Below, piece after piece: positions 9,491 through 46,151 of a stretch of DNA of 64,000 nt. The translations under genes were made by a program, and so were the position numbers. This stretch comes from Amphiscolops sp. MND2022 (taxonomy: Eukaryota). The notes beneath the pieces were generated by a model. The model worked only from the letters and a program-made list of their open reading frames with translations. It ran no database searches and was not told the DNA's origin. Positions within the stretch are counted from its first letter, which is position 1. Each line of letters starts with the position of its first letter. Location: NCBI GenBank assembly GCA_964187785.1, contig OZ076409.1:33358001-33422000 (forward strand), given 5' to 3'.

Positions 9491-12400
9491 CCCAAAACCG
9501 AAGGAAAAATGTTTTTACGGTATGTTACTTTACACAAATCGTGAAAAGAGTCTCTCGTCAAATAATCATAAAAGCACCTCGGAAAAATTCGTTTATAGTC
9601 TTAGCTGGTCAACTGAGAAACAGTCGACACTGCCAGGGCTACCAACGAGCAGAGCAATGTACGAAATGCAGTGCTGTGGTTCGTTGTTTCCCGTATCTCG
9701 AGGAGACGTCCGAGTGGGACGAATTTTGGTGGACAGCAAGTGGTGAAAGTGCTGACGGTGCTAACGGTCCAAACCGCAAGTCTCTAGGTTGTCTGGGTGT
9801 GAAGAAATTGCGTTGCGATGACATGTACCATTTGACCAGAAGTGTCGCTCAGATGGGTCATGGTTCGCGAAAAGTTTGAATTTGCACCTTTTTTATGGAG
9901 ATCGTTGGTACAGGTCAGTGACATTTTTTTGCAATAAAACGACACCCTATGGAACGCTTTTAAGCGAAGAAAACAAAAGTCAGGCAAAAGTAGCCTCGAG
10001 CCCCCACGGAGTTGGGAAAAAAAGTTGACCGTTCCCGCGGCTCTTTTAGGTAGAAAAGATGTGATTTGATGTGAAAAAGTGCGAAAAATGGAAAAACGGG
10101 AAAAAATCACCTAAAATGACAGCTGTAGTCAGGTGTAGAAGCCTGGGGAACCGTTGTAAAGTGGTTTCTCGAGCGAAACACAACCCAAGGGCACCATGAT
10201 CAAATTTTGTAGCAAGTTTGACCGCTCCTGAAACCACGGATAAGCAAATATCTTGTAATTTTGGCCGTTTTTGGCCCTGTAGAGCACATAGTAAAAACTT
10301 CTGCAGAGCCAACCCTAGATTGCGCGAGAGAGCTCGCGCGCTATCATTTTCTGTTTTTGTAGTAAACGTACCATGTGGTGGTTAAAACCGCATGTGAAAG
10401 TTCCCATTCTGTGCTGAGAAAAGTGGAAAAACGCACTGAATTTGATCAAATTTCCATAAAACCGGTCTGTCAAACTGTTAGGGTCGGGTCATTGATCCCC
10501 GAACCCTAGCTAAAAAGTGGTTGCCTTTTTCGTTATCACCGCTCAAATAAACGTTAGTGCCGAAAATTTGGTGAGCCTACCGCTAACCAAAGTTGAGAAA
10601 AGTTCTCTGACGTTTTGACATCCGAAAGAGCTAAAATATCCAAAAAAAGCTGAAACTGCAGGACCGACAGTGTCTTATACCTAGGAGGCACAGCTAATTG
10701 AGGGCTTGAGGCAGTGCTGTGACCAGTGGGGCAACACGTTGACCCTGTTTTGCCTGTCGTAATATTTGTAGTGTTGATCCTCTTAGGCACTTTGTGAAAA
10801 AAAGTGTCAAAAAAAGTCTGTTTTTGCTAGAGTAGTTTCTGTACCCAGTCTGGATACTAGGAAAGCACTCGAACTTCCATCAGACCATTGAACCAGAACT
10901 CATTGTGGGTGCCCACTGGCAGCCCTTGGCAAGTTTCGTACCGATTGCTGCAGTACTTGTTGAGAAGTTCACGGAAATGTACTGCACAAAGAGGTGCAAA
11001 AGGCACATCTTTCGGATTTTTTTGGAAGTGCCTGAACACCTTAACCGGAAAATGGGGACAAATTGCAGCCCACTAACGTAACTGAGAAAGCGAAAACTGT
11101 TGTAAGTGTCTCGTGCTCGCGCCAAGGAACGTGTAATCCCCAACCGGGCTTGTTTTCTAGACTTGTGGGTTAGAAACTATTGCTGGAGCGAATTTGAGTT
11201 GGCTACCTCGACCAGAAGCAATTTCGACTCCTTTGAAGCGTGCTGAGACTGAATTTTGGTCAGGTCTTCACCAGAACGACCAGCGGTCGCGCACTCTCCA
11301 AGGAACCCTAGTTTCAAATTCTGTGACCTCTGGTTATACCTGGTTTTTGGTATGTCAAGCAGAGCGACGCATGATCTCTCTACCTACGAGCGTGATTTTT
11401 TGAGCCTCGTTGATAACCCAGTCGTGCATTCGTTGATAGTTCCTACTTACCTCCGTGCAACTCCTCACGTAATAAGCAATCGCTACACCATGTTTTGAGC
11501 TGGTGCGGTGGCTTTTGCCAAGCTACTCACGCGCCATGCAACAGCTGCATGCAAGACGAGCGAATCTCGCGCGTCCGGAGTCACAGGCACTGGTGAGACT
11601 CAGGAAATAAGCTCAATACAACGCGAGAGTTCTGGAAGTGATAGTAACTTGAGCATACGCGAATGGCCCTCTTTAGTGACATATGTGAAATCTTTAGTGA
11701 CCAACTCCTCATTTTCAGACGCAAGGTCTGATAGAGTAACTATCGATCAACAGAGAAAGGAAGAGCAAATTGCCATGGCTCTTGTCCGAGATAATTCACC
11801 AGTTTCGGAGGAACACATCCGCACTGGACAGTGGATACAGGACACCAGGAGCGGGTTAGCGTCACCTCAAACGGTTTGATTTTGGCCCAACTCAAACGAC
11901 TGTTGATGCCACTCCTTTGCGCGAAGGGTGCTAGAGGGCACCCGATGAAGGTAGCGGCACTGTCAGCAAAGACACTAATGCTATCCTTGAGAGCATGACG
12001 TGTGTGGGTGGCATGATATATACCAAGTATCGGTTGGAGGTCAGTCGTACAAAGGGCTCCGAAAAACAGAAGAAGGTACGTCCTCCGACATTTTGTGTGC
12101 AGGCTGAATTGGACCGTGACAAAATCAATTCGCGACGGTACCACCTCTATCGCCTCATCACGACGATCATCGGCGTACCGCGCTGTAGAAGAGGCGGCAG
12201 CAGCCAGAACAGCGATGTTGCAGGCGGAGGCTAAGGCACAGCGAACATTGGTACGTTTAGCGGATATTCGTGCTGAGTGCAGTGAACAGCATAGTGATGG
12301 CCGCGGAGCTTGAAGACTTGCAAAGCTCTGTAAAAAAAACAGCCTGAGGGCTACTGGCCAACAGCACACTGTGCAATCTGCGATAGTGGATGCCACGGGG

Positions 12401-12750
12401 TATCGCCTGGAAGAAATGAAGGATTTGTTCCCCAACCGGAACTTCGCATGGAAGTGCAGATGGCTGAGCTCAACACAAGGATGCACACCTTGAGCACTGC
12501 AACCCAGGCAACCCAAGGCGACAACCAGCCCAATGCAGACAACCCAACTGCATCCAGTAGTGAAGTAATGCCTGCGCGCACCCCTGTCCCACCACTGATG
12601 CTGAAGACTAGCCCCAAATCGGTGTCTAAAGCTCCCAAGCCTCCAGAAATAGCTACGAAACAAATCAAGGTGCACGTGTGCTAGCCGAACTCGCTCCCAC
12701 CCAGACAGCTCTCATCGACACTGTCACTTACTCGAACTCAGGATCGAGGA

Positions 12751-14010
12751 GTGGATCCTCTGACCACCTCCGCGTCGGTCATAAACTTGACCGACGCGAC
12801 GGCAACAGCTGGGTCCCAAACCAGCAGCGTGGACGACAATACATACGCAACCGCCAAGGTAAGAGCCACCGAAACTGGCTCAATGTTTCTAACCGCGAGT
12901 GAAGGAGTGCTCGCGGGCAACCCTTGTGCTAGTAGCACTCGCAAAAAGGATAACCCAAATAGAGATCTGTCCATGCAGGCTACCAAAGGTAGTCAAGACA
13001 ATTCCCCAGCAGCCAGTAACGAAGGGGAGGTACTCTCCCTTGAGCAGTTGCGATTCTTCGCCGCTTTATCCAAAGCCAAGTCGAAGGAACTGGACCGTCT
13101 GTTAGCTGGCCGTGACCCCATACAGGACCGGCCTAGTGTCTACCGAAGATCTACAGAAGGTTCTATTGAGGGCTGTATCCTAGTCATGCGCCGCTATCTG
13201 CAACGTACGCAGGCCAAAGCGAATCCAGATGACAGAGCTTGGAGTATCGTCAGTCATTTGGAAGGTGAAGCGCGCAACTACATAATGAACAAGGCCGAAG
13301 CCGAACGGGACACACCTGAAAAAGTATTGGGGTTGCTAGCTAGTCAATTCGGAACTGGAGGCATTAGGATGCAAGTGCGTCGACCCTTTGCCACTCGACA
13401 ACAATCCGAAAAAGAAGACTGGATGTAATACCTAGACGCCTTGGAAGGACTGCGTAGTCTGGGATTCCCTGATGAGCCTGTCACCGCTAAGCGTTATGAA
13501 ATCATGCAGCGCTTCATCGAGGGTATCCGTGACGCTGTTCCGGGATGGGAACTCTCCATCATACATGAATCTGAAACTACCGTAACTGACCTACCCACTG
13601 TAGACTCCTTGAGATTCACCACCAGGCAGCTGCAACGTAACCGACACAATCCTTCGCAACCCTATGATCCCCGCTATGCTCTGAGGTCAAAGCTTCATCC
13701 TTTCGTGCCGTTACCCCTAAACAAGATGGTATTACCACAAGGAGTATTGCCCCCACCTCCTACGAGCAATGCACCATCCAACTAGGCGGTTGTGCCACCT
13801 ACTGCACGCTTGCCGCTAGGTGCCTGTTTCAACTGTGATAAGACGGGTCACTTTGCCCGCGACTGTCCTACCCGAGATCAGGCTTGCAAACCCGCCGCAG
13901 TGCCAGAGCCCGAAGCCATGAAAACCATTTTTGAAGACGTCGTAGAGTGCATCGCAGAGAATTGCTCCGGGGTCTGCTTTTGCGTCAATTTTGGAAAATC
14001 CTGTGAGTGA
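12751..14010 (+). pseudogene. gag: E1 gag (capsid and zinc knuckle); true start probably further upstream
   Basis: AWSIVSHLEGEARNYI..FATRQQSEKEDWM*YLDALEGLR..QRFIEGIRD; CFNCDKTGHFARDC at 13825-13866. Confidence 0.88.
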
Positions 14011-17000
14011 CGACTTCGCTTACAGCCGATGGGCGGAAGTCGAGGCGGCTGGTGTTGCTGCCCACACTGTGCCATTAGAGGAAGACTGTGTGTTGATGCT
14101 CCACCCCAAGGAACCTGCAGCCTTCTACACACCCCTCACCATAAGTTGTGGTGCCAAGCAAGTGCAAACGCACTTGGAGCCAACGACCAACGACTTCCGA
14201 CCCCCGAGGGCGTACGCTCATATCCTTCATTTGATGTTGGCTGCAGAGCAGTTTCGTCGCCCGACGTTGACTCTAGCCAAACTTTCGGTTGAACTATCTA
14301 TCTTGTACAAGCGAGTGGAACTCCCTCGCCCAAAGGGGTGGTGTGCTCCCGGAGACTCGGATTCATTGACCATGTATTCTCCAGTGCCCATTTGTGCCAC
14401 GATGGATGGCGTGGACGGGAAGTTTGGAGCCTACGTGATAGTTGACGTGTTCCCTCCCGGCATATGCCTGGGACGTCAAGAGCTCAAATGCTACAACATC
14501 AGTCGCCAGGAACCCACCGGCGAAGCACGAAGAGACGAGCGTGCACCGCTCGTCATATCCTTCATCGTGCCCCATGCGGCACTAATTCCATTGCGAGGTC
14601 TGGTTAACACCGGTTCCGTGGTATCTATTTTGACGTTCTCTGACTTCAACCGAGTCGCTGTCCAAACCGGGGCAGTGCTTAACCCCTACCAGACTGACTT
14701 ATACGTCGCCAATGGCAACACTATCAAAACATATGGAATGGTGGAGCGTCTGCGCTTCCAGTTAGGATGCTACGAGTTAGAGACGAGTTTTCTAGCGGTG
14801 GACGATGCAATGGGAGTCGAGGACTTCTTGCTAGGCCGGAACTTCCTTCTAGCTTATCAGGTCCTTGTTGACCTGACATCGATGAAGATCGTGGTTCGTG
14901 CGCCTGTTCAACCAGTCTGGCACCATGCCCACACCCAGGTACGTGACCGTCGCATTAGACAGCCACCTAGTGCTGCACCCCTTCGAACGTACGGTTGTGA
15001 AAGCCTAGGTGGTCACTGCCAACCTGGAGCCACCAGTGTTTCAGAACGTAGTGTTGAATGCCGTCATTGCGGGCGTGTCACTACAGAACGTAGTATTTTT
15101 AGAGGACTGCGTTGCCACTGTCAGTGAGACAGGCCACGGCTTTTTTCAGCGTGAGCTGTCCTCACAAGCAATCCACAGCGTCTCCGTGGCAACACCCACC
15201 TGGGAACTGTGGTACCCGTACCACTGGGATACCGAACTGTACCCCAACAAGTGGATAATCCAAAACCAGAAACCGAGGACGATGAAGACCATGTTGATTT
15301 TTATCATAAAGTTTACAAGGAATTCAATCTCAATACAATCTCGTCAGAATTCGAATTTTTGTCGACAACGCATCCTACTGAGGAAAGCCTTTCAGACCGT
15401 GAAAAGCGGAAACGTACGGATCCTGAGCTAATGGCTCTCATACCGGGACCAGAGTCACAGCTACAGGACGTGGGCGACCTGTGGGGTTCTGAAGCGAGCA
15501 CCTCTTTAGAAAACATTTTGACAGGGTTTGATGACTTGTTCATGAAATATAGGGCTGGCATTGGTCGATGCACCATGGCTAAACACCCAGTAGAGGTACA
15601 ACCAGGTGCCGTGCTGCACCGTGAAGGTGCCAGGCGTATGTCTCCTGACAAAGCAGCACGTGCCAACGTGGAATGATCGAACCCTCACTGTCCCCCTGGC
15701 CAGCGGTATCATCATGGTCATGGAAAAAACGGTTCTGATGTGACTTCCGCCCAATGAATTAGGTAACTGTCGAAGATGCATACCCGTTACCCCGTATTGA
15801 TGAAAGTCTGGCCAGACTGGGTGAAGCCGAGATCTACACCAGCATTGATTTGGCCTGGGCTTTCTGGCAAATCCCCGTCCGAAAAGCTGACCGTCAGAAG
15901 ACCGCATTTGCTTGTGAGCGAGGACTATTGGAGTGGAGATGCATGCCCTTTGGCATGTGTAACGCTTCAGCCACCTTCCCGAGCGCGAAAGCTCCAGCGC
16001 AACGCAAAATCGTGAACCGAAAAGGTAGCATGGTGATGGTCTACATCGACGACATTGTGATAGACACCGAAACGGTGGAAGACCACATGCTGCGTCTCCG
16101 CGAAGTCTTTGAATGCCTGCACGAAGCTGGATTAAACATGAGAGTTGCCAAGTGTGATTTGATGAAGTCTGAGATCGATACTTGGGTCGCGTGGTGTCAG
16201 CGGAGGGTATAAAGCCTGGCCCTAAAGCCGTCGCGAAACTGCGAGATTGGGACTTTCCCCTCAACAAAACGAAAATGCAAAGCTTTCTGGGCTTTACCAA
16301 CTACTATCGCGAGTTCATCCGTTGGAATACAAAACTTGTTGCTCCCTTGCACACCATCACTGTGGTAAACGCCACTTTCACGTGGGGATCTGAACAGCAA
16401 CAGGCTTTCAAGAAAATCAAGAAAACACTCATCGAAACGAGTGCTCTCGCGCAGCCAGACTCGGAAGGCGAATTTTTGCTGGACACTGACGCCAGTGCAG
16501 TGGCGATTTCTGGTATCCTGCACCAATGGCAAGGTCCCCAGGAGACAGACCTCTCCGACCTATAGTCTATGGCAGCAAGAAGTTGACGGCTACTCAAGCA
16601 AAGTACGGAGCTCCCAGGTTGGAAATGTACGCCACCTACCACTTCATTGTCAAGAACGACAGCTATTTGTGCCTGCGAAAGTTCACTTGGATATTGGGCA
16701 ATCAAACACTGTCGTGGTTGAAAACCTCTTCATCCGATCAGGCTCTCATTCGTCGATGGATAATAGCACTCAAGAAGTACCACTTCCGCGTGGAACAACG
16801 ACCGCGACACAACATCGCAATGCCGATGGTTTGTCTAAACGGACAAATGACTATCGATGGCGAGAACAACTGCTAGAAAAGCTACCACACTGTAACTGAA
16901 CGCTAGAATTTCTTGTCTCAAGATGAGTATGAGCCACTGCCCACTGCACCAAGGTATGACAAGCAAGGCCGTATCATACCTACCACCCTGATCTGCCATT

Positions 17001-18684
17001 GCACTTGCAAAAAGTGCAACCCAGCCCCTGATTTGGTTCAGCGCAATATTCGTCGCACACAACGGACCAAAGGACAGGAAATGGAAAAGGAGGCTTTGCA
17101 GGCACCACTGCCGCCACCTCCCCACCTGTGCTGCACGCTCACGAAGGCTTTTATCCTGACTATCACGAACCCTGGATAGATGTAACCGAGGAAGCTAGTC
17201 ATGATTACTTACTGCCGACACACGTGACAAATGTCGCATCGCGTACAACCCACGAGCTTGCCGAAGCCAGCGGAGCCGTGTTACAAAATGCTCCCAACAA
17301 ACTCAAGCAGGCGGTGCTTGCTATTCGAAGTCTCAGCACTGATTTTCATGAGCATGCCAACACTGTCCATGGCAACAAAGATCTAGTATTGGCACTGAAC
17401 CGAGACGTTCAAGTTTTGACACTCAAAAAAACTGGTCAACAACGAAAACCTTGAATAAGACATCGTTCCCGAGGATGTGCGTGCTTTTGCCCGCAACTAT
17501 TTCAAAGGAAAAAGGAACTGCTATTTTTGAATTCTGACGGAGTTCTTTGTGCGAAGTATCCTCCGTCGCAGCGACGGTTGCATGAACGGCCCTGCATGAT
17601 TGTGATGCCTCAGTTATACCAGCATGAGATTCTCTTTCGTGCGAACGATGCAATGGGTCACCAAGGCATCAGCAAAGTTGTCGCGCGCATACAAGAACGC
17701 CACACTTGGCCTAGAATTCGTCGCACTGTAGACAATACGTCAGTCAATGCCTTACTTACCAACAAGTACAAAATAAACCTGGCGACGTCCGCTTCCACCT
17801 CAAAGACATTCAGAGTGCGTACTTCAACAAGCTGGTCCAGTATGATCACTTGAAGCTCTGCCCCTCTGGTGATGGCAACACGAGAAATCTGGTCATCATT
17901 GATCACTTCTCCAGATTTGCCGAGTCTGTACCTTGCAGTCACAATGAGTATGACGACATCGCCACGTTTCGTTTGCTGCTTCAAAAGTGGTTTGCCCGTT
18001 AAGGCACGCCCACGCGCATGCAATCTGACAACGCTCCTAATTTGACCGCTGAGGTCCCGAGCGAGTTCATTAAGGCCTCGCAGGTCACCAAATTAACTTC
18101 TACCGCTGGTCAATTGCGCACCCAGGGGTTGGTGGAACGTCAGATTTGCACATTGCTTACTTTGTTGCGAGTGTTTTTTTTTCCGCCGGATGTGCGACTG
18201 GGATAGGCACCTAGATGAAGTGCTTGATGCGTACAATTCTACCCGACGCGCAACGACAAGGTTCTCTCCTTACATGGTTACGCAAGGTACTGAGAAGGCA
18301 ATACCGCTCACGTACCTTTACCCTGAGTTTGCGACTCAGCCATTTGCAACTCATGACGCATATGTAGACCATGTGTTGGCCTGCCAACAAGAAATGCATG
18401 ACCTGGTGCGTCGCAACACCCACCAAGCACAATTGCGTCAAAAGCTGGAGTTCGATTGCGCCGTACGAGCCAAAACTCACAAGCAGGGCGATCTCGCAGG
18501 GTTTTTTGTCGATACGTCCAGCTATAGAGTTCTCCTAAGTTGATGCGCGCTTGGCGTGGTCCGCACCGCGTGGCTTATGTTTTGCAGGAAGAACGTGTCT
18601 ACAACTTAGATACTGGGCAAAAGGTGCACTTTGAACGTCTTAAACTGCATCACAGTGGCCCTACGGAATTCGCCACTACCCCCC

Positions 18685-18970
18685 TTCATTACGAGGACAA
18701 AGTGGGAAAAACGTGAAATACAACGATTTCGTTGTCGTAATTTTTTTATTCTCGAACTAATGGTAATACATACAAATTTCAAGAATCGAGAAAAGCTAAG
18801 CGAAAGCAAGTGAGGATTTTTCTCGATTCTTGAATTAAATATAATGCATATCATGCAAGAAACGAGAAAAGTTTCAAGAACCGAGAAAAACAGCTTCTAG
18901 CTGTTTTCCTCGATTCTTGAAACTTTCTCGATTCTTCAATTATACGTTGATTCTTAAAATTTATATGCCC
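18685..18970. repeat. ~290-bp AT-rich foldback insertion in the E1 integrase tail
   Basis: Absent from E2 (HHSGPTEFATTP|..GTGEIAVV vs HHNGPTEWAAVPAHNGEVAII); inverted copies of TTCAAGAATCGAGAAAA; C6 run on each side. Confidence 0.65.
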
Positions 18971-20258
18971 CCCAAGTTGGTACTGGCGAAATCGCCGTTG
19001 TCATAGATACGGAGCCTGAGCGCTCCATTGAGCCCAAAAATGATGCCCTTTCCAAACCCTCTTTTATAAATTAAAAATTACTGCCACAGGCTCCGAATGT
19101 GTCATTGCCTTCCCGTCGACAGCACTGGACGAATAAACGACTCCGCACTAAACTCCGTGCTGGAGAATATCGACCACACTATCAACAATTCGACTATTCA
19201 ACGTCGGACACAGACGATGAACCTTACGGGGCCATGATCCCCATTCCTACCTATCCCCAGGACCTGGAACAACCAACATGGCCTCCAGATCCACCTGTTG
19301 AGTCTGTACCTCACAATCCCGTATCTGACGTCTCTTTTCAAGACTGCCTCCCACAGTTATTTTCTGACCACGAGCTCGAGCGCTTGACGCTTCCAAAAGG
19401 GGGAGGGGGAGACCTCGCAAGAAAACACAGGTGCCTCGTCAACGGAAAGGCCCGGCTAGAAACGTTGAAAAAAAACGTAGAAGCAGGCAGGGTCTCAAGA
19501 TCAGCGGTATCAGTTAAGGCAAAAATGACGGCCTAGATACAAATGTGGACTGTGTGGTCTACGTGACTGCGTCTGCATATTAGCTGTGAAAGAGAACCGG
19601 GAGATTCCCATTGGAGCCCGGGGAGTCGATAAAACGAGGACTTAGTTCACCGTATTGTAGTACGAGCTGGAAAGAACTTTGCTGGTGTAGAAAGAACTGA
19701 CAATCACACAGCAGTGCTAGGTGTCGCGAAAGCGCCGTGTCCTCGACTCTAGGAGTGGACGAGCGATGGCAAAGGCCTTGAATTCACAACGGTGGTTACC
19801 CCCAATATTGTGTTTGGTCCGTTCAACTTTGAGCGAGAGCCAGTGCAAATGGCCAGGTGCATTACTGGGGACCTGCTACTCGACCGATACGGGGTAGAGC
19901 TGAACCGGGTGGCGTCTACATTCCGGCCCCGTACTGGTGGTTCTTGGTGACTGCTCCACGCGTCGACACCCTACTGAACACACAGCATTTGTTGCTATGC
20001 TTGGAAAATCTGAGGACTTCCACCACGGAAGAATTAATATTATGCTTCCACCTCATCGATTGGTATCGTTGTAGAGTAAAATTTCGCTGGTGGTTAGAAT
20101 TGATCATCACGTGTTTTTTAATCATACGCGAACTCAACTGCTAGATGAGTGGGTCCACACATTCGAGGAACCCCTGCAGATTAAGGCAGCGGTAAGCACA
20201 CTGGACACATGGGTCCGAGCGAATGTGGCCAATCGAGCGATGCCTCGCTCCGTCATTA

Positions 20259-21065
20259 GAGTGCACAGGCAAGCCTTATTTGCTCAAAGCGCAACATTGT
20301 GCTTTCAATACCTCGGATTCCACGACCATACCTTTAACCGTGAAAAAATGGCAAATTACGTCATTTGTCCCGGATTCCACGGATTTCGTCGTGAATTCCA
20401 GTACCGAATGCTTAGCTGTACGCACTGTCGGCATGCAGCGGTGTCCCGGATTCCACAAAAACGTAAGTTTTGCAAAATGAACCAAATAGATTGCAGAAAT
20501 CATAAGTTTCCTGGATTCCACGACTTTATGCTTGATGCGATACGCGGCATCTCTTCTTTAATTAAATTCAAGTGGAAGACTGAACAAACATAATATTATG
20601 CACTACTTTTCGTATATTAATTCAAAATGATTCAGACACACACACCAATATCACACAAAATAGTCGTATTTTTCGAAGTTTAGTACCAGTTCTAAACAAA
20701 CTGCGAGATCATCACATTCTGCCATTTTTTAATGACATGCTTCAATTTTGGTACCAGTCATGAGTATCTCTATTCGTACTTTTTGGATTTTTCGTGTCAA
20801 TCAAAACAATTTCCTTCGATGTAAAATTGATTTACTTTAAGTTGTTTCCAATAATGATCTCTCAAAATAAGCGGACCAATCAGAGAGCAGCAGCAAAAGT
20901 GTCATTATAGCAGCAGTATTGGCGTGGAATCCAGGACAAGCACTGTCGTGAAATCCAAGACACGCTTAACATCAAAGAGAACATTTGTCCTGGGTTCCAC
21001 GACTTTTCTCAATTTTCGTGTCCCGGATTCCACGAAAAGCAGCAAAATAGCTTGCCTGTGCACTG
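20259..21065. mobile_element. Tc1/mariner-type MITE with TA TSD inside the E1 pol tail
   Basis: TIRs GAGTGCACAGGCAAGC / GCTTGCCTGTGCACTG; TA at 20257-58 and 21066-67; internal GGATTCCACGA repeats. Excision restores the frame MPRSVI-NGMPGPSHNTRR. Confidence 0.85.
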
Positions 21066-21920
21066 TAATGGTATGCCTGGACCTAGCCACAATACAAGGA
21101 GGTACCCCACACGTGTGCCAGGCAACCTACGTTCTAACCTGGTGGAATACATTCTGTACAATACCACTGATCTCCTGCAAGCCGAAGGCCACATTGCTTT
21201 GGAATGTCCCGCTGACTTGGAGACTAGTTCGGCCGCGCTCCGCTCTGTGCTGCGTGAATGTGGCAGGGAACAGGTTTTCAGCTTGCATCCACAAGTGGGA
21301 GAGATACTAACTCTAACTCCCTCGATTACGAATAAACCATCCTGAACAATCCACCTAATGATAACCCGTGCAAATCAGCGTGCGCCGCTGGTAGCAGACG
21401 ACTTTCTACTTTGTCTGGAGAAGCTGATATTGCGGCTCAGGGACACGGGAATCTCAAGTGTTCACTTTCCAATACTGGATCCTGAAAGGAGTGTGTACTC
21501 GTTGGCCAGCCTATATCAAGTAATGATGGATATGTTCGCGGGAACTAATGTCAGTGTAGTACTGCACAATCGCGTATAAGTGTCAATATTGGGTATTGAG
21601 GTAGGCAACGAACTACCGTAGAATCAACCCAAAGGTTGGTACTGCAGTCGGCATGAATTCTGCCGTGGACCACGGTCTCATGTTTATGTTGTTTAGCTTT
21701 TGAAGTGCCTTAAGCGCTTCCCTCTTTCTTTAGCAATTTTACGTGTAAATACGAAGCGACGATGCCTTGAGCGTCTCCTTAGCTCATTACTACTTAATGT
21801 TATGTTAACTACTGACGGTTGACGAATTCCATTTAGGAGCTCGTAGTTTTCATTCCACTGCCTAACACTAAATGAGGCGAAACATGTCTGAAGAGTACTT
21901 GTTTTTAGACCCATGAGAAT

Positions 21921-24900
21921 ATGGCTTACCATCACACAGCCTCTTCATCAGTGCCTACTAGCACCGCACCAATCCATGACGCTGCTCGAGGACAGCGCAC
22001 CAACCAGGTACAATACATCGAGGAATATCTACACAATGCCATTCCGCCAGCAGCCGTGGCCGGCATCACTGCCCGGCTGGCCCAGTTGGAAACACAGCCT
22101 ACGTTACCGAGAATAGCGGTATCGATTGTCGCAGATGTAGCGTATCATTACCTGCGGCAATGGAGTGTGGGATGGCGATGATTTAACGACCCATTCCTAG
22201 ATGACCGGTCCACTGTAGTCTATGGCCCCAGCAAGCACACCACGTTTGAATAAGAGGCTACGCTGCGCGTGCCTTCCAGTGCACCAGTACCTCAACCACT
22301 ACAGCCAGCTCATCTGATAATTCAGCCGCAAGCGCAGGTTCAACCACAACCTCGACTCAGCTGATTCATTTGCAGAATGTGCAGCAATTGGTGCCCACAC
22401 GTGCTCCAGTGGCACCCAAAACCCCAATCACTTTATGCCAGTGCTCCCGCCGTACAGGCACCACATATGATACTACACACTGCCAGCTCGTCCTCTAAAC
22501 CATAACTCGCGGGCTTCAGTCAGGTCTCCAGCGCCAGAGTACAATCAGCGCAGTCTTCGGCGCCACCTTCAGTCCGTCCATTAGTATCACTCAACATGGC
22601 TAACAGAACTGTGTCTTCCTGGCCAGCAAACATTGCTAGATTCGCATTTGCAGCCCGAGGGCTGCATATCGACAGGGACTATTCAAGGTCCAGGACCCAA
22701 CACCGCAACACAGCGTGCGCTATCTCCAATTCCAGGACTATCGCCCGTCTCAGACGAAGCGCCCGGACGTAAGAGGGTCTCGCCCCATGAGCTGCCGGGA
22801 GCGGCGAACAAGTGACAGACCGAAAAGTCGTCCTCATCTGACAAACGGAACAATGTACCATGAGTGAGTTGATGGAACGTTACGCACCCAGTCCTTCTTC
22901 TGTGCTCGAGGGCACAGCAAACACAGCGTCATCCAGTTCTGTTTCCACGGCGAGGAGAACACCCAAGGTCCCGCCATACTATCCACCTTCAAAGGATGTG
23001 GCTGGTTCCAAGGATGCCAATCGAATCTGACAGGTAGCCTCATGGTTATCAGAAAAGCAATTCAGAGATCGCCAGCGTGTTCTTCCCTCAAGTGCAGACC
23101 AGGCGCAGTTGAGAAAACTATCAATAGCAGCTCACTTGTCGAGGACACTTCGTGTATTTGACGTCGACCTTGATGAGCAGGCATGGAAACAGCGCGTCGT
23201 AGCGCGACTGGCGCTCGCCTATGACAACTTTGTATGACCAATGCAGAACATTTTGCGTGAACAGTTTAATGCTAGGTACTCCTTGCAAGCCGGCGAGACC
23301 TGGGAGACCCACAGTGTGTATCCCCAGAGTCTAGAGTCATTGAAGCCTATACCCAAGTACCTGATTCAACGTACGCGATTTTGCGTTATGATAGATTCCA
23401 CGGTTCCATGCGACCTACCCTATGACAACGTTGTTCCCGACGTGATGGTAGTTACAATGCCCCTCGCCCGTCTGCCAGAGATGGCGGAGGTCGTTGTGAC
23501 AATGTTTGCCCCGAATCTTGAGGGCTTCCAAAAGGAACCGCCTTCAAAGCGATTCATTTTCCCCAATTTGGTTGATCACATGGCTTGTGAAGGTCTGTTG
23601 CAGGACCTACCAAGGCACTTGCGTGAGATGTTAAATCGCGAGGCAGCCAGGCAAGAGGTGGCGCGGGTGCTACATCAAGTGGCAACAGCGATGGAAAGAA
23701 CAGCAGAACCACCGCTGCGTACGCAGCTCAACACTCCTGTGCTCTTCGTATCGCCTCCAGGCATGTTGTACTGCGGAAGCGCGGCTCAGCAGTTTGTGTA
23801 CATACTAAACGAGGTCTGTATAGCAAGGAACATTGATTGTTAGATTTGTGCTCCCAACCTGCGCGTTGGACAGGACGATTTGCGCCCTGCAGCACTGTCA
23901 GTCCACGCATAATTGGGAACGATATCCCGTCTGCTGCAGACACTGGAACGAAACGGCAACGCACAGTTGACGTGGGGTGACGACATTAATTACTATCACG
24001 GAATGAGTCTAGGTCATCTGAAGTTTGATGAGGAAGGCAACCGCCTTTTGTCCGATGCTAATTTGACGGAGCGCGAAAATATGCGCAGATTCAATTGGTT
24101 GGTCCGTAAGTCCCACCCAACCACGGTAAAGGCGGACTTGCCTGCAGTGTGGGATCAAATTGGCAGATGGTCGGCCAATCGCGAAGTGGGACGCACTATA
24201 CCTCAGGTCCACTTTGCTGAGAATACGGAGATCAACAAGCTACCCCTGGGTCTGCGACACATTGTAGCCCATGAAGCCGTGACCCTAGAGCGGGCAAAAC
24301 AAGCCCGTGAAATCACCTACGGTGAATGGTACCAATACCGGCTGGCGACAGACACCCTACCAATGGCAGCTCGAGCGCTGTCTGTTTCCTTCCCGGCCCT
24401 CTTGACAAGTTTTGGCCTAGGCTAAAACCTGGATGTTGTAAGTCACGAGTTCAGCTTGAGTCGAGAGCAAGTAAAGAAACTCACTGACACACTGGAATGC
24501 ATGACGGTCAATGAAGTGCTAGCTCTCGCGCTAGCCTTGGGACCTACTAAGTTTGTGGCTGATCCTCTAGCCATAATCGTGGACCTAGTAGCAGCTGGGT
24601 GCTTGCTTGAGTTCTACACGTACTTAGTAAAGGCTCAAGGCAAGCTGAACGGACTGATTGGCTTAAGCAAAGTGTTGTTCAAGAACGACACACAGAACTA
24701 TGTTGAGGACTTACTAAAACTGAGAGCATCCCTACAGCATTAGCTGTACTCGTCGCTGTTTTCGCGTCCGGCTTATTCGTGGGCGTGGATCAAGCGCAAT
24801 CACTCCACAATCCGGACACTCAGCTTCCCAATGAAAATGCTGGATTCCCCATGCCGCAACAAGTGGCGGATCTCACACTGACCGAGGTCGAGGACTTGGT

Positions 24901-25836
24901 TCCAGTTATAGCCCCGGTGCTAGTCCCCGTTTTGGACCCTTGGGACTACTGCGGTATCCAACCAAACCCGTGCCAATGACTGTGCAAGTTGCCACGGTCT
25001 CCATTTTCACATACTTACAAGGTAGTCCCCCCATGAGCTATGAATGGGTCATCAGAGATCTCCTTAGCAGTGAATCGCTGCAAGTCTACACCACTATCAA
25101 GACGGAACAGCAAGCTGAGGAAAACATGATGGGAGTCATTAGGGCTCGCACTCGGGAGGCGACTGTGCTGCCTAGATAGTTCGGCCCTGTCAACTGGTAC
25201 AAAGCTATTGGCGACCTGAATGGGCAACTGTTCAGATTTCCATGGCCCACAGAAACATTGCGCAAGATCATTGATGCTATCTTGAGGGCTAATACCAATG
25301 CGCGATCCGATTACAACTTTAAGTTCATCCTGATCCCCAAACGATACTACCCCCGCGTGGGTCCTATTGCTCAAGGGCAAGAATATCTGGATCACCAATT
25401 GCAACATCTGGACTTTGCACGTGTCCAGCAGTGGATTGAAGTAGCCACACAGGTGCGAAGGCGTAATGTCTCCCGCCGCAAGGCTCCCGTGCAGTACGAA
25501 CCTGCCTGGCACCCGCAAGGAAAGATGACAATGTCTGGCGACATGCCTTTGGTGCTACTGGACGAGGTCAATTCCGTCCTGGGGCCCGAATTTCGAGTTG
25601 AATGGTATGAAGACTGTTTGAACTTGGAGATTGGTAATTTTGAAGGATGGAAGAGAGCTTGCGGGCTCTGGAAGCAGGCCGGCTGGATTTCCAAGCGTGT
25701 TGCCCGTGCTGCCACCGGCAGAGCTGAAGCAGAGCGCGCACAGGCCTTTGCGCAACTGCTGCAGCCTAATACAGCCACCATAATGGCGATGTCATTGGAG
25801 CAGTCACTGACTGTGGAAGCAGCTCCGGTAGCCTAG
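21921..25836 (+). pseudogene. E1 ORF3 (env position, ~1300 codons): conserved N-domain, low-complexity linker, SGNH-like domain, tandem HTH-like motifs, unknown C-domain
   Basis: Protein-level conservation with E2 ORF3 (IHDAARGQRTNQV..PAAVAGI vs VYDTARVQRTSQI..PAAVAGV; FASGLFVGVD; EVEDL; LRYPTK; GPVNWY; RACGLW). Confidence 0.78.
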
Positions 25837-26832
25837 GTCCTGGAAAATGCAGCTATGCCTGTAACACCCGATCAATCCGGCGAGCATCCCGCAGAGCTAA
25901 CGCCGAATGCAGCGTTAGTGGACCCAATCGGAGGGCTCACGATCGACACCGACACAGAAACAATAGTACCGTCTCCCACTAGCGAGTGAAGCCTCTCTAC
26001 CGACGAAAGTTTCACCCCGTAGCCGCCACAAATTGGCTATACAATGAAACAACTGCCAATAAAACCGGTGAGCTCGAGGGCTCACCAGCTACGTACGGAG
26101 CGTGAGGGCTCATAGCCCACAAAGCTGCCAAAACTTGGCCTAACTGTTGTTACTTTTCCTTGATGCTACCTTAAATTGGTGCAACTTTAGTTTGTTGTTA
26201 TCTCGTTAGTCTTCTTTGATAGTGTGCCGTGGTTGTATGGCATCAGAGTGCGCCTGCCCCATGTGCTAGTGCTGAATTGAACCACGAATCAAAAAAGCAA
26301 CCGAGAAAATACAATTTTCTTCGTATCTAACACCTCGAGCGGTGTCACCAGATGAAGTTCCAGGGCCAAAGGCGAAAAGTGACCTGAAAAGATCTTTTAT
26401 GCTGAATTGCTTTCCTTTTGTTGAGTCATGTGCATTCTATCTACTGTATTCCCTGTAGCGGACCTCGCACGCTCCCAGCAAAGGAAGTTTTAAACAAAAA
26501 ACTGAAAAAACGGAATCCAAAAAAAATTGAGAAAAAGAATTTTTAGCTGGCATTTGCTGTGAAAAATGGTTTAACCTCAAAGGGTGCTTTAAAATGGCAA
26601 AACGCCGCCTAAAAATTTCTAGTTATCGAGCTGGTGCTGAAACCGTCATGATTTGTTTGTAAAAATACGAAGTTTTGAGGTAGTATTTGATAGGATCCCA
26701 GACGGCGCTATCCCTACAACATCTGTTTGACAAGAATTCGTCCTAGTTTCAAGACGTATCCACAGCATGGGCGGCACCCTGTTCCTGGACGAGGTCCTGC
26801 AATGCTTGCCGGGGACGACAAGCCAGAAGCCT

Positions 26833-26841
26833 GGGGAGTGA
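26833..26841 (+). promoter_or_regulatory. E1 polypurine tract
   Basis: GGGGAGTGA abutting the LTR TG; identical in E2. Confidence 0.8.
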
Positions 26842-27560
26842 TGTAACGTCACCCTGTAATCAACGAAATTTTGGATTTTTTTTTGAAAATTTCGTTCAAA
26901 ACTGACGTAGCACTTGAACATGGTTTTGGCAAAGTACCTGTCAGCAGAAATCACACAGAGACAGTAAGAGAAGTGCCCCTGTGAAGAGAGAGCGAAAAAG
27001 ATTGCGTGTCCATGCACGAACTGGTCAAAAAAGACAGCAGAAGTGCCTATATGCTTGGTGTTTGCCAGCTGAATCACGGTTTTGCGGAAGTGATCCAGAA
27101 AGCAACATGACGGCCTAATTGCAGTACCCGTGCCCGGGGGTTGTGCCCAGCTCGAGCGCTGGGGCCATGCCGACTGGAAGCCCACCCACTCCGCCAAACT
27201 GGACTTTATTGTAGTAATTGACGTATTTGCTTGATGAATTATTAGCTCGAGGACTACTCTTACAATGTGCTTTTACGCAGATTCCCACCGGTGAAATTCA
27301 GTTCAACAAAACCTTGTTGTTTTTATGAGCTATCTACGCGGTGGTTGTGAGAAGAAAGCACAATTCCTGTGATTTTTAGCAGTTACAGACTGTTTTCAGG
27401 CGGAAGAGCATCTTTTAAGACGGTCCCCTCTCCTTGGGACCGGCTATCCTCAGGAGAACAAAGTGAGCTGATATCATGATGGTTTGTCCCGGACCATATC
27501 CATGGTACCAGTTCCTCCACTCCAATGTTACGATACAATCGCTTAGCGCTTGCCGTTACA
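26842..27560 (+). repeat. E1 3' LTR (719 bp)
   Basis: TGTAACG...CGTTACA termini; homologous over its length to the solo LTR at 58817-59530. Confidence 0.9.
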
Positions 27561-31625: not shown

Positions 31626-32356
31626 TGTAACGATCACCTATCAAGCCCGAAAATTCGAAAATTTTGAAAATTTTGTTCAAGGGACTAGATTCCCTCTGCT
31701 GAAAAGTAATATTCCGCTGGAGGATACCGTGTCTTTACTCAAGGACCTGTCAGCAGAATTAAAGAGGATTTGAACAAAAAAGTCCGGGTAGACCCCATCC
31801 GATCGAGACGATTGCAGAAAATCACGGCAGCTGTCAGAAAAAAGACTCAATTTCTGTCAACACGGACTGAACTTTGTTCTAACCGTCACTTTCATTAGCA
31901 AATCGCCACGAAATGCTGTGATTACCTAAAATGAGTCAATAGGCTAGACCAAGAATCCCCGGCTTGTGTCCCCGGCTAATTGCTACCTAATGGTGCTAAT
32001 TAAGCAGTAGATTATGTATTTGTAATTGTATTAACTCGTGAGCTACTTATTTCGAATTCCCCTGTGACTACGAAGAAACAGATTTTTTCCTTTTCCACCA
32101 CCTCTATTTTTAAAAGGCTGTCTAAGTGATGGTTCCGAAGAAAAAGCGTAATTCGCGCTGCTGACAGCAATTAAAGACTGGATCAGGCCGGCGAGCACTT
32201 CACAAGAAGCGGAATCCTCCTCTGACGGGAAAGTTTTTACCCGAAAGAGGCAAAATGAACTCATGGTCATGGGCACCTGTCCCGGGCAAATACCCATATC
32301 ATGTGTTCCTCTAACTCTTATGGTTACGGCGACAAGGGTGAGAGCTTGTCGTTACA
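31626..32356 (+). repeat. E2 5' LTR (731 bp)
   Basis: TGTAACGA...TCGTTACA; direct repeat of 45439-46151. Confidence 0.97.
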
Positions 32357-32372
32357 TAGAGAAATCATTTTT

Positions 32373-32391
32373 TGGCGACCACAGAGGGATC
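32373..32391 (+). promoter_or_regulatory. Primer-binding site, tRNA-Arg-like
   Basis: TGGCGACCACAGAGGGATC is complementary to a tRNA 3' end (..CCCUCUGUGGUCG-CCA) resembling animal tRNA-Arg(UCG). Confidence 0.7.
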
Positions 32392-34899
32392 GCTTCGAAG
32401 TGCTTCCCTTAATGGTTTTAAAAGAGCCGACCCACTGGTGATTGACACCAAGTACAACCCGACTCTGACGAAAAGGAGCAAGAAGCAGAGTTTTTCTACG
32501 TTTTTACCCTGTGTGTGTATCATTAAAGGCTTTGCGCCTGGTGGTTAAAGGTAAATTTTGCAAAAAAAAAGCAGTGTCTTGTGATTTTGAAGCTTTTTTA
32601 GTAGTCAACAGGTAATATTCGAAATAACCAACCCTCTTAACGGGTCACTTATTGAAGTTGGTCTAGCAAGCCATTGAAAGGCCGCTAGAGGTGTTAACAG
32701 GTGTTTTCTAGCCTTTTTCAGCCTTTTATGACCAACGAGTGTTGGAAAAAGGTTGATCCTTGCTCAGATGTATCTTACAATTCGCCAGAATGAAGCTATG
32801 CGACTCACCGGTCCCATTTCTCGTACAGGCAACCTGGAGGAATGAAATTTGGTGGAGACGTACTACAAACGCTGACGTGTTTGATGATGTAATCCGTTTG
32901 TTTCTAGCTGTTCTGGGTGATGAGCAAAAAGAGCGAAAAGATGTGACTCGTCAATACGGGTTGTATGAAATTTTTGAGTCAGGTTGAAATTTTTTTTGGT
33001 TGCTCCAAATTTTGTGTGCGATCATTTGCCAAGGTTTTTACGAGTCTTCTGTAATTAGGTGTGTGCTTTTGCACCTGTTTTGTGCGAAAAAAGTGCGTTT
33101 TTTCATGTATTTTCAACGAAAAGTGCCCAATTTGGCCATTTTGAGGCGAAACACCTACATGAGCGTGAGCGCTCTTGGTGCTAGCCACACGCCTGCAGAA
33201 ATTAAAAAAACAGTAGCTCAGAGCTCTTACGAGTTCCCAAAAAACACGTTGAACTGCTCAAAGTTGCTTATCGGGGCACTTAGTGTAAGTTTTGTGAGAA
33301 AAAACCCCGTTTTTGAAAAAATTGAGCACTATTGGCACACTGAATCCGTGGGGAAATAAACATAAAAGTTTTCAAACGCCCCCGGATGGCTGCAATCAAG
33401 TTGGGGTACACTTGCCGGTACCCTACGCTGTCCATTTTGGTGATTATTGTCACTACTTTTTGAAAAAAGTCACAAAAATTGCGATTTTAAGGTTTTTCCA
33501 TAGCGTCCCTAAAGGAAACCTGAATTAACTTTTGACGAACTCTTTTACGCTTAGAATAGCCCCCGGGTTTTTATTTCCAGTTTATTAGTAAAATTTCACG
33601 GTCTACAGAGAAGACCGCATGCCAAAATCCCTTTTCAGTCCTGAAAAAAGTTGAAAAACGCACTGAAAAACCCCATTTTACCCATAATCCGGACTGTCTC
33701 TGGGCTGGAGTTGAGTCATCGATTCCTGAACCCTAGCCAAAAGGTGGTTGCATTTTCATAACCACCACTAAAAACAACGCTAGTGCCGCAAATTTGGTGG
33801 GCGTATCGTTCACCAAAGTCGAGAAAAATTCTCTGACGTTTTAACTTCAGAAGGCTACAAAATCCGAAAAAATCCAAACTTGCCGGACTCTCGGTGCCTC
33901 ATATTTAACGGGCAAAACCAATTAGAGGCGTATCCCAGTGCTACAAATAGTGAGACAACACGTTGGTCCCATTTTTTCCGCCGTACCACTTTCTGAGGTA
34001 ATCCTCTTAGTCGATTTGTGAGAAAAGTTGTCTAAAAAATTTTCTTTTCGTGAGTACTCTCCAAGTAAGGTCGAAACTTCAAATAAGCGTCCGCGCTTTA
34101 ATTTGATTGTTTCGCTGGCGTTGTACACGCTCACTGGCTTTGACTATCAAGTTTCGTGTCAATCTATACAGTATTTAGCGAGAAAACTGAAAAATCGTGC
34201 CACCTAAAAAGATGTGCAAAAAGTACAAATTTTCAAAGTTTTTCTGAGTGACCCAAGTACCTTTATTGAAAAGCGAAGTCAAATTGCTACCCAGTTTCAT
34301 AACCCACCCTAGGTATTGCATTGTTCTGCAAATTTGGAGCTCGCTAACTCTTTCCAGTGTGTCACAATCTTGAAATAAGCGTGAAAAATAGTGCATTTTG
34401 GTGATCAAGGGTACCGCACGTCTGAACCGATCCAAAATTTGAGATAAAATCCCTAACTCAAATCTAAATTCGCTATAGTGTAGTGCACCTACCACAAGGT
34501 TGGGTGGGCAATTTTCAAGCGTTTCTGACGAAGAGACGCTGCGTACGAAGCATCTTGGTGTTTTTTGAAGAAATCTGAAAAACCCAAATATCATCGAAAA
34601 CTCGACTGTGCGCAATCTAGCCGTCCCACAAACCCTAAACGCACGGTTTCCGGCCCCACACAACGGTATCAACGCGCTGTGTAAGTTTCACGTCGATAAA
34701 ACCGCTAGATCGATCTTTGACTTTTTCGAGAAGTACCAAATAATGAAAACTAGTAGTTTACGCAACCTTTGGAACGCTCTAATCCTTCAAGAAGGGGGAG
34801 GGAAGCCATGTCGCAACACGCTGAAATACCGAAAACGCCGGAGCCAACGTGAGGCAAATGTGAGTTTCAGTGCAATATCAGACTTGACCTCAGACCCCA

Positions 34900-36340
34900 G
34901 ATTGGAAGATTGGCCCACTGATGACAGTTTCGTAATGGAACCCGATTGTTCAGACCCTATGTCAGATAACGCATCGGAGAAATATCAGACCAAAGCGGTC
35001 GCCAGGACTACCGATGATATCGGGGGATCAGCCGACGAGACAGGAAGTCAGGCGCAATCTTCTAAATGGCTACAGGAGCTATCCAGTGCCGTCACGCCTT
35101 TTGGCGCAGATCACTTCGGAGCATGGCCCAACTCTAACAGAACAAATGGAGAGGAAGTGGAGATGAGCTGCCTGAATGCGACGGGGCAATTCAAGGCTCC
35201 AAGCACGGGAAGCGAAGGTACAGCACATACAGCAGAGGTAATCCAGCAAAGTTCCAATATTGGGGGCATGAACTATGCCAGGGCGCGCCTACAAGAAGCT
35301 ACCGCTCCCCGACCACCAGGGAAGGGCAAGCAAATACGGCCTCCAACCCTGCTAGCGCAGACAGGCACGACTGGACCCCATGGTGATTCGCGTTCATCAT
35401 CACCTTCGTCGAAAGCCGCTGTCAGATGCACAGATTGGTGTGAAGCAGGTTACTTCCCAACTGTCTTAACGTAAGGCAAGGTGCATGCCAAAACCCCAAA
35501 AATCGACAAAGCATGGGCCATCATCGACCACCTAGAGGGAGAAGCGAGAAACTACATAATTAACAAATCTGAACCTGAACGAGATGAACCCGACAAATTG
35601 TTCACCCTCCTGGCCAGCAGATTTGGAACGGGTGGAAATCGTATGCACGTCCGACAAACTTTCATCTCTCGCACCCAGCAGGAAAAAGAGGGCTGGATGC
35701 ATTTCTGGATGCGCTGGAGGGCTTGCGCACCCAAGGATTCCCAGATGAGCCCATCACTACACGTCGTTATGAAATCCTGCAACGCTTCATAGACGGTGTA
35801 AGCGATCCAACGCTGCGACAAGAACTGGCTGTAGTGTATGCTGCGGAAAGCTATCTGTCTGAACCGCCTACAGTGGAATCTTTGAGGTTCACCACGCGAC
35901 AACTCCAACGGCATCGGCTAACAATCTCGAAACCTTATGACCCTAGATATGCTATGAGATCAAGGCCTCATCCTTTCGTGCCAGGAAAGATGGTCCACCC
36001 GGCACCAGACCTACCACAGAATGTGTTGCCTCCAAACCAGGGACAGCGAGAGGCAAAACCTCAGATCGCCGCACCAGGCCCGGCATCAGTAAAGCAAGCT
36101 CCCCTGCCGCAACAACCAGCGAGAGTGGTCCTCCAAGGAGCATGTTTCAACTGCGGACTGCCCGGCCACTTTGCACGAGAATGCCCAAATAGAGATCAGG
36201 CAAGAAAACCAGTGGCACGTGCTGCACCTGACGATCGAGTGACTCTCTGTGTGAACAACGTGGCCTCTGCATGTTCTGGCCCTGTATTCTGTGTTAACTG
36301 GCATGACCGAACATTCAGCGTCGCAATGCCAGAACATTCT
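34900..36340 (+). pseudogene. gag: E2 gag with two zinc knuckles; start approximate
   Basis: KAWAIIDHLEGEARNYI..RYEILQRFIDGV; CFNCGLPGHFAREC (36143-36184); second knuckle CVN(C)GMTEHSASQC at ~36290-36328 with a 1-nt deletion. Confidence 0.88.
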
Positions 36341-36399
36341 AGTACACGAGGGTTTGGCATACAGCCTCTGGGCTGAATAGCCATCTGCTCCTCCTCAGA

Positions 36400-41469: not shown

Positions 41470-41662
41470 ACTTTTTGTTTTTGTTGTTAGTTCGTTAGTT
41501 TAGTGAATTTCGGCGGAACTTAGGCATATATTTTACTTCTCCTTTTGTTATTAGTATCTTGTATCTTATCAATTTCCCTGGTACTACCCTTAATGTGACC
41601 TTATGTGTTACTCTGCTGCCGATCGTCGTACAACCTATCTGCACTCTTTTAGAGATCTTGCG

Positions 41663-45429: not shown

Positions 45430-45438
45430 GGGGAGTGA
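45430..45438 (+). promoter_or_regulatory. E2 polypurine tract
   Basis: GGGGAGTGA abutting the 3' LTR. Confidence 0.8.
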
Positions 45439-46151
45439 TGTAACGATCACCTATCAAGCCCGAAAATTCGAAAATTTTGAAAATTTTGTTCAAGGGACTA
45501 GATTCCCTCTGCTGAAAAGTAATATTCCGCTGGAGGATACCGTGTCTTTACTCAAGGACCTGTCAGCAGAATTAAAGAGGATTTGAACAAAAAAGTCCGG
45601 GTAGACCCCATCCGAACGAGACGATTGCAGAAAATCACGGCAGCTGTCAGAAAAAAGACTCAATTTCTGTCAACACGGACTGAACTTTGTTCATTAGCAA
45701 ATCGCCACGAAATGCTGTGATTACCTAAAATGAGTCAATAGGCGAGACCAAGCATCCGTGCTTGTGTCCCCGGATAATTGTTGCCTAATGGTGCTAATTA
45801 TGCAGTAGATTATGTATTTGTTGTTGTATTAACTCGTGAGCTACTTATTTCGAATTCCCCTGTGACTACGAAGAAACAGAATTTTTCCTTTTCCATCACC
45901 TCTATTTTTTGAAGGCTGTCTAAATGATGGTTTCGAAGAAAAAGCGTAATGCGCGCTACTGAGAGCAAATAAAGACTTGATCAGTCCGGCGAGCACTTCA
46001 CAAGAAGCGGAATCCTCCTCTGACGGGACAGTTTTTACCCGAAAGAGGCAAAATGAGCTCATGGTCATGGGCGCCTGTCCCGGGCAAATACCCATATCAT
46101 GTGCTCCTCTAACTCTTATGGTTACGACAATGGTGAGAGCTTGTCGTTACA
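45439..46151 (+). repeat. E2 3' LTR (713 bp)
   Basis: Direct repeat of the 5' LTR; AATAAA at ~45968. Confidence 0.97.

Follow-up and report, generated by a model that had tools for sequence, protein, structure and literature searches.

A Gypsy-type retrotransposon lineage of Amphiscolops with 3-bp target-site duplications and a predicted macrodomain tail on its integrase

Elements with long terminal repeats (LTRs) other than Troyka make target-site duplications (TSDs) of 4 to 6 bp, and a TSD of 3 bp is the mark of Troyka (Kojima 2025, PMC12440569). Single parts of the architecture described below have precedents, namely, macro-domain open reading frames (ORFs) in fish retroviruses (PMC4977317) and a GDSL ORF3 in bdelloid elements (PMC5408684). 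Here, we report on a 64,000-bp stretch (the window; G000:C1:33358001-33422000) of the 1.07-Gb assembly of Amphiscolops sp. MND2022, which contains two decayed LTR elements, E1 and E2, and one solo LTR. Both elements belong to an abundant lineage of Gypsy-type LTR retrotransposons, with a long tail on the integrase and an extra ORF after pol, and neither copy is intact. We put at slightly better than even (about 0.55) the reading that this is a ~19-kb, recently active lineage with 3-bp TSDs, the integrase tail of which is likely a noncatalytic tether to chromatin or DNA. The 3-bp integration footprint is the best-supported surprise; the functions that we give to the tail and the extra ORF are inferences.

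Integration footprint and primer site

The lineage works like a Gypsy element. Searches with pieces of the E1 and E2 extra ORFs scored at least 150 and at least 134 places, respectively, the family numbers at least hundreds of copies in the genome, and 35 copies picked for long open frames were retrieved. In family A, an unbroken gag-pol frame of 3,128 amino acids was present in two of ten copies and a second frame of 1,439 amino acids in all ten; family A2 had a 3,193-amino-acid gag-pol frame in three of five copies and a 1,430-amino-acid second frame in all five. Family B had second frames of 1,479 to 1,539 amino acids, and gag-pol was unbroken end to end in none of its ten copies. The protease (PR), reverse transcriptase (RT), RNase H (RH), and integrase (IN) follow one another in the Ty3/Gypsy order, the gag knuckle is CX2CX4HX4C (Pfam zf-CCHC, E 1.4e-7), and the best solved-structure match of RT-RH was Ty3 (E 2.6e-74; next family, 5.6e-46). 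By eye, a WRGPH motif after the integrase core occupies the position of the GPF/Y motif, and outside relatives P0222 and P0076 have GPY/GPF there.

Natural copies bore out the giant Gypsy-type lineage proposed in a preliminary description of the window, as did the domain order, and corrected two of its details. Since gag and pol share one frame in them, the extra ORF comes second and not third. Whole elements that could be followed to both ends are 18,838 to 19,234 bp long (18.8 to 19.2 kb) and not 17 to 18 kb, with an internal part of ~17.4 kb and a leader of 2.4 to 2.9 kb. LTRs are 714 to 737 bp, of the TG...CA type, with termini TGTA[AG]...TTACA. LTR pairs within young copies are 98 to 100% identical, and therefore the lineage was recently active.

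Integration of this lineage duplicates 3 bp. Among 89 LTR loci, 27 were solo LTRs and 28 paired into 14 elements (the partnerless rest was excluded), and 36 of these 41 insertions had a 3-bp TSD, with a 4-bp match in two (one within an A run) and 5 to 8 bp in none. When flanks were shuffled, the number of 3-bp duplications averaged 1.9 and never exceeded 8. Two solo LTRs in the count, L087 and L105, have common flanks and may be a single event, and a misclassed pair, L136/L137, was left out of the count and has 3 bp too. Family A2, with two further loci unpaired, had 3 bp in 11 of 14 pairs and 4 to 7 bp in none. The combined tally is 47 of 55 for 3 bp, 2 of 55 for 4 bp, and 0 of 55 for 5 to 6 bp. 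Moreover, the target is symmetric, with A at -3 in 32 of the 47 sites and T at the mirror position +3 in 34, and the symmetry is centered on the middle base of the triplet, as expected for a 3-bp staggered cut.

Neither the drawing of LTR ends nor the host accounts for the 3-bp signal. Misplaced ends were ruled out because, at the inner junctions, T follows the polypurine tract (PPT) and A precedes the primer-site spacer and because matches of 4 to 8 bp are absent apart from the two 4-bp ones above. Host repair was ruled out by two unrelated Gypsy families of the same genome, one with a 5-bp TSD in all four copies that had both ends in view (nine were extended) and the other with a 4-bp TSD in 7/7 copies (one further copy ends in a gap). 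These control families (L295-L331) are young, are ~12.6 to 13 kb long, and have env-like third ORFs, the env pattern being recognized by eye. LTRs of the 5-bp family are ~1,955 bp; the 4-bp family has noncanonical TA/TG...AA termini and another ORF after env.

The primer site is displaced. The site, 18 nt that match the 3'-terminal stretch of host tRNA-Arg(TCG) including CCA, lies 15 to 16 nt from the LTR in 36 of 37 5' LTRs and 14 nt from it in one (family A2, 15 nt in 14 of 14), and in both control families the primer site is 1 nt from the LTR. The preliminary description had missed both the 3-bp TSD and the displaced primer site. We note that tRNA-Arg genes form a tandem array with a unit of ~173 bp (G000:C9:57537790-57576392 and beyond; L172-L174) and that the tRNA-Arg pattern has 256 matches genome-wide, some copies having changed anticodons (CCG, TCA).

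We propose the following scheme for how the lineage might integrate. Minus-strand synthesis would be primed by tRNA-Arg and, by the standard reverse transcription scheme, the DNA copy would extend 15 to 16 bp beyond the right-hand CA, such that integrase would have to trim the extension. Retroviral integrase usually trims 2 nt, and an extension of 15 to 16 nt is far more. A two-fold symmetric intasome would then make the 3-bp staggered cut, and the tail, if retained on integrase, might guide the enzyme to chromatin as the chromodomain does in chromoviruses. The weakest steps concern the extra ORF, which may be expressed from a spliced message and may be an accessory protein derived by erosion from an SGNH esterase, with a role in particle or membrane trafficking and not as an envelope.

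Integrase tail and second ORF

The integrase ends in a predicted macrodomain. A canonical D-x35-E core and the WRGPH motif are followed by ~270 residues of low complexity, in which RGRP motifs resemble AT-hooks (Pfam E no better than 0.2 to 2.8), and then by a CxxC-x4-CxC motif and two alpha/beta domains. In an AlphaFold model (predicted local distance difference test [pLDDT] of 51 for the whole model and mostly 55 to 89 for the terminal domain), the best match of the terminal domain was human TARG1 (Foldseek E 2e-8). Compared with TARG1 (VIA), the domain gave Z 16.5 with a root mean square deviation of 2.5 and 140 positions aligned, and Z was 14.6 against DarG. By hhalign, it matched the tails of outside relatives at 98%, and one such relative matched human TARG1 at E 4e-14. 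Thus, the macrodomain that the preliminary description placed at the end of pol is supported, and the pol C terminus is predicted to have a TARG1-like macro fold. The first of the two domains matched macro-like folds at Z 6.4 to 6.7 only. Pfam returned neither Macro nor SGNH for the proteins of these elements; the evidence for a macro identity comes from structure prediction and from relatives. The tail had no PDB sequence match, an Atlas search gave only a lead (0.89) to a Macro cluster, and neither Pfam nor the fold search found a chromodomain after the integrase.

Whether the predicted macrodomain processes ADP-ribose is doubtful. Lys84 and Asp125 form the catalytic pair of TARG1 (PMC9411070). 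When positions were mapped to TARG1 via P0169, Arg stood in the Lys84 column in 23 of 26 rows, the GCGLD loop was replaced by DPERP (PILDPERP or similar) with Pro at the Asp position, and the GAGIA-type loop was ETNSA; the E1 domain has the Arg and, in the Asp125 loop, DPER. It is these replacements, of both catalytic residues and of the two glycine loops, that make an ADP-ribose-processing role doubtful for the families of this genome.

Relatives outside this genome share the tail and grade from catalytic to eroded. A search with RT-RH-IN found unnamed ENA, JGI, and Logan proteins at 44 to 52% RT identity, and the nearest proteins that were looked up had no informative name. In a quick midpoint-rooted tree of 36 of 138 eligible rows, built of unnamed Gypsy-like RTs only, ten outside proteins and five copies from this genome formed one branch with an SH-aLRT support of 100. 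Six of the ten have a macro domain at the C terminus (Pfam Macro in three, E 2e-5 to 1.5e-3), and the other four are shorter proteins in which no tail was detected. Both TARG1 residues, Lys and Asp, survive in P0076, P0169, P0179, and L185, and thus the ancestral tail was probably an enzyme. The macro tails of P0236, P0222, P0129, and L186 are eroded, and P0129 has two macro domains in tandem. Outside the branch, the Gypsy pol P0191 has a Macro domain after the integrase, which suggests repeated, independent capture of TARG1-like domains. Three of 80 metagenome loci were nearest this branch, and two of them, L185 and L186, were long enough to show gag, pol, and a next ORF of at least 1,679 and at least 1,808 amino acids, respectively; the macro domain at the end of pol is clear in L185 and weak in L186. 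No LTR pair was found in L185 or L186, in which gag and pol are in separate frames, and IMG/VR scans found no relative.

The second ORF looks like an eroded SGNH protein, a resemblance that is statistically weak. Its close homologs are 25 unnamed ENA proteins at 41 to 97% identity, Pfam, PDB sequence, and Atlas searches gave nothing usable, and its predicted structure combines an alpha/beta with a helical domain and has no clear fold match. All four SGNH blocks were recognized by eye in the extra ORFs of L185 (9403-14439), L186 (15644-21067), and P0271, which had no Pfam or PDB match and none of which ranked above background with short-motif profiles. In this genome, the Ser block is kept by eye and the Gly, Asn, and His blocks are replaced. 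A GxxxFxxGP motif, chosen by eye, is common to the extra ORFs of this genome and of outside relatives 380 to 390 residues after the xDS block, occurring in seven of eight proteins examined (one A1-type lacks it) with two matches in 271,047 background residues. The extra ORFs of L185 and P0271 further contain a stretch rich in cysteines that resembles a zinc finger.

The second ORF does not read as an envelope. Its N terminus is polar, with no signal peptide; no internal RxK/RR (furin) site and no C-terminal hydrophobic segment or membrane anchor pattern was found, and two internal segments have a hydropathy of 1.7 to 2.3. The preliminary description was therefore right that the ORF is not env. 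Its further proposal of a regulatory protein found no direct evidence, the eroded SGNH protein being the closer likeness. A pyrimidine run and AG lie 6 to 12 nt before the ATG in four of five subfamily copies and in E1, and the acceptor-like AG suggests that the message is spliced.

The tail and the second ORF are under strong purifying selection. The ratio of nonsynonymous to synonymous substitution (dN/dS) was computed between subfamilies from natural frames by the NG86 method. Between A and A2, it was 0.025 for RT-RH, 0.042 for the first macro-like domain, 0.039 for the terminal one, and 0.051 and 0.095 for the alpha/beta and helical parts of the second ORF; between B and B2, it was 0.054 for the terminal macrodomain and 0.053 for the alpha/beta part. 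Overall, RT-RH ranged from 0.016 to 0.025, the first macro-like domain from 0.03 to 0.04, and the tail and second ORF from 0.04 to 0.10. We conclude, as the preliminary description supposed, that the accessory parts are selected components; the architecture is real, is under selection, and was active recently. Immediately upstream of the protease, a conserved region (P0003 residues ~870-1030), termed PR' in the preliminary description, has a dN/dS of 0.03 to 0.05 and aligns with the same region of P0076, P0222, and P0236.

The window and its broken copies

Both elements in the window follow the order leader-gag-PR-RT-RH-IN-tail-extra ORF-PPT-LTR, and thus the shared layout first described from them holds (Table 1). 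E1 has lost its 5' LTR, the primer site, ~250 nt of leader, and, by deletion, the AT-hook linker upstream of its tail. E2 has lost three large internal blocks. Among them are the first half of the tail, with the CxxC motif and the first macro-like domain, and the alpha/beta (SGNH-like) part of the extra ORF, which is missing entirely. Protein-level conservation of the accessory parts between E1 and E2 thus covers only the terminal macrodomain and both ends of the extra ORF.

A noncoding block in the leader may possibly be a packaging or translation signal. Its counterparts (window 10330-11085, window 33610-34300, and L021:2108-2857) are 68 to 80% identical although the synonymous sites of the same subfamilies are near saturation, and several hairpins are predicted in it with little covariation (two-sided change in 5 of 56 pairs). 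One MITE-like (miniature inverted-repeat transposable element) repeat lies in two parts around E1 (~9320-9490 and 27565-27815) with matching inverted ends outside; E1 may have landed in this repeat first and lost its 5' LTR later. The end of another MITE-like insertion, of 864 bp within the E1 tail, matches many other places in the genome.

Table 1. Features of the window, in window coordinates
Feature	Position	Strand	Remarks
Assembly gap	7860-8059
E1 5' leader	9500..11696	+	5'-truncated: no 5' LTR, no primer site
Noncoding block inside E1 leader	~10330-11085		68-80% conserved among subfamilies
E1 gag-pol	11697..18680	+	many stops and frameshifts; order: capsid, CCHC knuckle (~13822-13869), protease-like region, protease, RT, RNase H, integrase
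Foreign insertion in E1 integrase linker	18683..18960 (approx.)		~280 bp; internal inverted repeat
E1 pol tail	19490..20254	+	CxxC-x4-CxC motif and first macro-like domain (broken, weakly supported)
MITE-like insertion	20255..21117 (approx.)		864 bp; terminal inverted repeats; splits E1 tail
E1 terminal TARG1-like macrodomain (predicted)	21118..21600	+	two stops; macrodomain at 21118-21597
E1 extra (second) ORF	21921..26004	+	broken; upstream pyrimidine run and AG, splice-acceptor-like
E1 polypurine tract	26830..26841	+	adjoins LTR
E1 3' LTR	26842..27560	+	719 bp, TG...CA
E2	31626..46151	+	internally deleted copy of sister subfamily
E2 LTRs	31626-32356 and 45439-46151		Kimura two-parameter distance 0.040; TSD TTC (3 bp) on both sides
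E2 primer-binding site	32373..32390	+	18 nt, complementary to tRNA-Arg(TCG) 3' end with CCA; 16 nt downstream of LTR end
E2 terminal macrodomain (predicted)	41098-41463
Short inverted-repeat elements, small tandem repeats	46155-57000 and 61200-64000		dense
Solo LTR, E1 type	58817..59530	-	81% identical to E1 LTR; flanks AAA/AAA
Tc1/mariner-type transposase fragment	59968-60693	+	HTH_Tnp_Tc3_2 and DDE_3

Rival readings and known systems

Several observations weigh against the reading of a tethering tail beside an SGNH-derived ORF. The extra ORF had no Pfam match, its best fold-search hit was an unrelated enzyme (Z 7.1) with SGNH rows at Z 4.9 to 5.2 tied with unrelated folds, hhalign to the outside ORFs reached E 0.0024 at a probability of 12%, and the SGNH part did not rise above shuffles. 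One copy, of B2, lacks the acceptor before its first Met. The first macro-like domain failed a profile test, with an hhalign probability below 1%. Several of the dN/dS comparisons have synonymous sites close to saturation and yield no point estimate, and the neutral yardstick failed: private changes in ten young copies gave 0.19, which reflects selection within sublineages and hence is no neutral control. The protease could release the tail from the integrase, and nothing was found that links the tail to the 3-bp stagger. Finally, a TARG1-like protein that lacks the Lys/Asp pair, SCO6735, has activity (PMC9411070), and thus loss of the pair from the tail is no proof of lost activity.

Perhaps the macro tail is a counterdefense that removes or soaks up ADP-ribose marks placed by host PARPs on element proteins or DNA, as viral macrodomains, TARG1, and DarG do. 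Four relatives keep the catalytic Lys and the Asp of a GCGLD-type loop, TARG1 and DarG reverse ADP-ribosylation of DNA (PMC9411070), and a second Gypsy branch, that of P0191, gained a macro tail independently. In this genome, however, Arg, DPERP, and ETNSA replace the corresponding residues, four relatives show the same erosion, and the domain here is still strongly conserved; we regard counterdefense as unlikely, at about one chance in four. Alternatively, the tail might be a structural part of the intasome that causes both the 3-bp stagger and the deep 3' processing. A 3-bp TSD, a 15- to 16-nt spacer, and a long conserved tail do occur together, and the control families have short spacers and 4- to 5-bp TSDs. 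Troyka, however, achieves a 3-bp TSD although it has no tail of this kind (PMC12440569), the tail is set apart from the integrase core by ~270 residues of low complexity, and macro-tailed relatives provide no TSD length, L185 and L186 being without an LTR pair. A structural role thus seems improbable to us.

An equally improbable reading is that the lineage already has an entry in a catalog such as Repbase or Dfam or that it represents a Troyka gone astray. The 3-bp TSD is the Troyka hallmark, but the TG...CA termini, 714- to 737-bp LTRs, ~17.4-kb interior, CX2CX4HX4C knuckle, and GPH/GPY-type motif all differ from the description of Troyka (PMC12440569), no paper with this layout was found outside subscription journals and Repbase Reports, and the nearest proteins looked up are uninformative by name. 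Membership in Troyka was rejected on four features (termini, size, zinc knuckle, and GPF/Y motif, the last judged by eye), the comparison being with the published description of Troyka only.

We tentatively entertain, at somewhat less than even odds, a larger claim: that an undescribed, old, and widespread branch with a TARG1-derived tail and an SGNH-derived giant ORF evolved an integrase of 3-bp stagger and deep trimming independently of Troyka. In that case, 3-bp integration would have arisen a second time, here with TG...CA termini, and, for the first time, an ADP-ribose eraser would be seen to have become a tether for integration. With 4- and 5-bp families in the same genome, the 3-bp lineage lends itself to a comparison of what sets the cut spacing of integrase, and the graded series of catalytic to eroded TARG1 tails makes the role of ADP-ribosylation in conflict between retrotransposon and host testable. 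Annotation tools set by default to demand a TSD of 4 to 6 bp or a primer site adjoining the LTR would miss this family or misplace its bounds.

In print, Troyka is the only 3-bp LTR group that we found. No paper with this layout, or with TG...CA termini and a 3-bp TSD, was found in a literature coverage that lay outside subscription journals and Repbase Reports, and the excerpts of PMC2774666 and PMC3601003 hold nothing on macro tails or spacer length. Like Troyka and the Kuafuorterviruses, the lineage has a 3-bp TSD, a mostly single gag-pol frame, and no env (PMC12440569, PMC11673190). Troyka, however, has CG...CG termini, LTRs of 100 to 400 bp, an internal part of 1.5 to 7.7 kb, a CX2CX8-10HX4C knuckle, and no GPF/Y motif (PMC12440569). 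Tor of Oikopleura is likewise Gypsy-type with a third gene after pol, but that gene encodes a membrane Env and the TSDs are 4 or 5 bp (PMC4402516, the main text of which does not use the term "macro"). Bdelloid Vesta elements likewise have a non-env ORF after pol; their GDSL ORF3 is ~1.3 kb with intact catalytic residues (PMC5408684), whereas the ORF here is 4.3 to 4.6 kb with only the Ser block recognizable and a putative SGNH identity. The motif blocks are clear by eye in the ORFs of the outside relatives L185, L186, and P0271.

With Ty3/Gypsy elements (Metaviridae), the lineage shares the PR-RT-RH-IN order, knuckle type, TG...CA LTRs, a tRNA primer site, and a PPT. It differs in its 3-bp TSD, in a primer site 15 to 16 nt off the LTR, in a length of ~19 kb, and in the TARG1-like tail and the non-env ORF of 1,430 to 1,539 amino acids. 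Chromoviruses also carry an extra module at the integrase C terminus, for which tethering has been proposed; the parallel is an analogy only, as the module there is a chromodomain and here a predicted TARG1-like macrodomain. With TARG1 (C6orf130) and DarG, finally, the tail shares the predicted fold, but the families of this genome have other residues at Lys84 and Asp125 and in place of the two glycine loops, and the domain is fused to an integrase.

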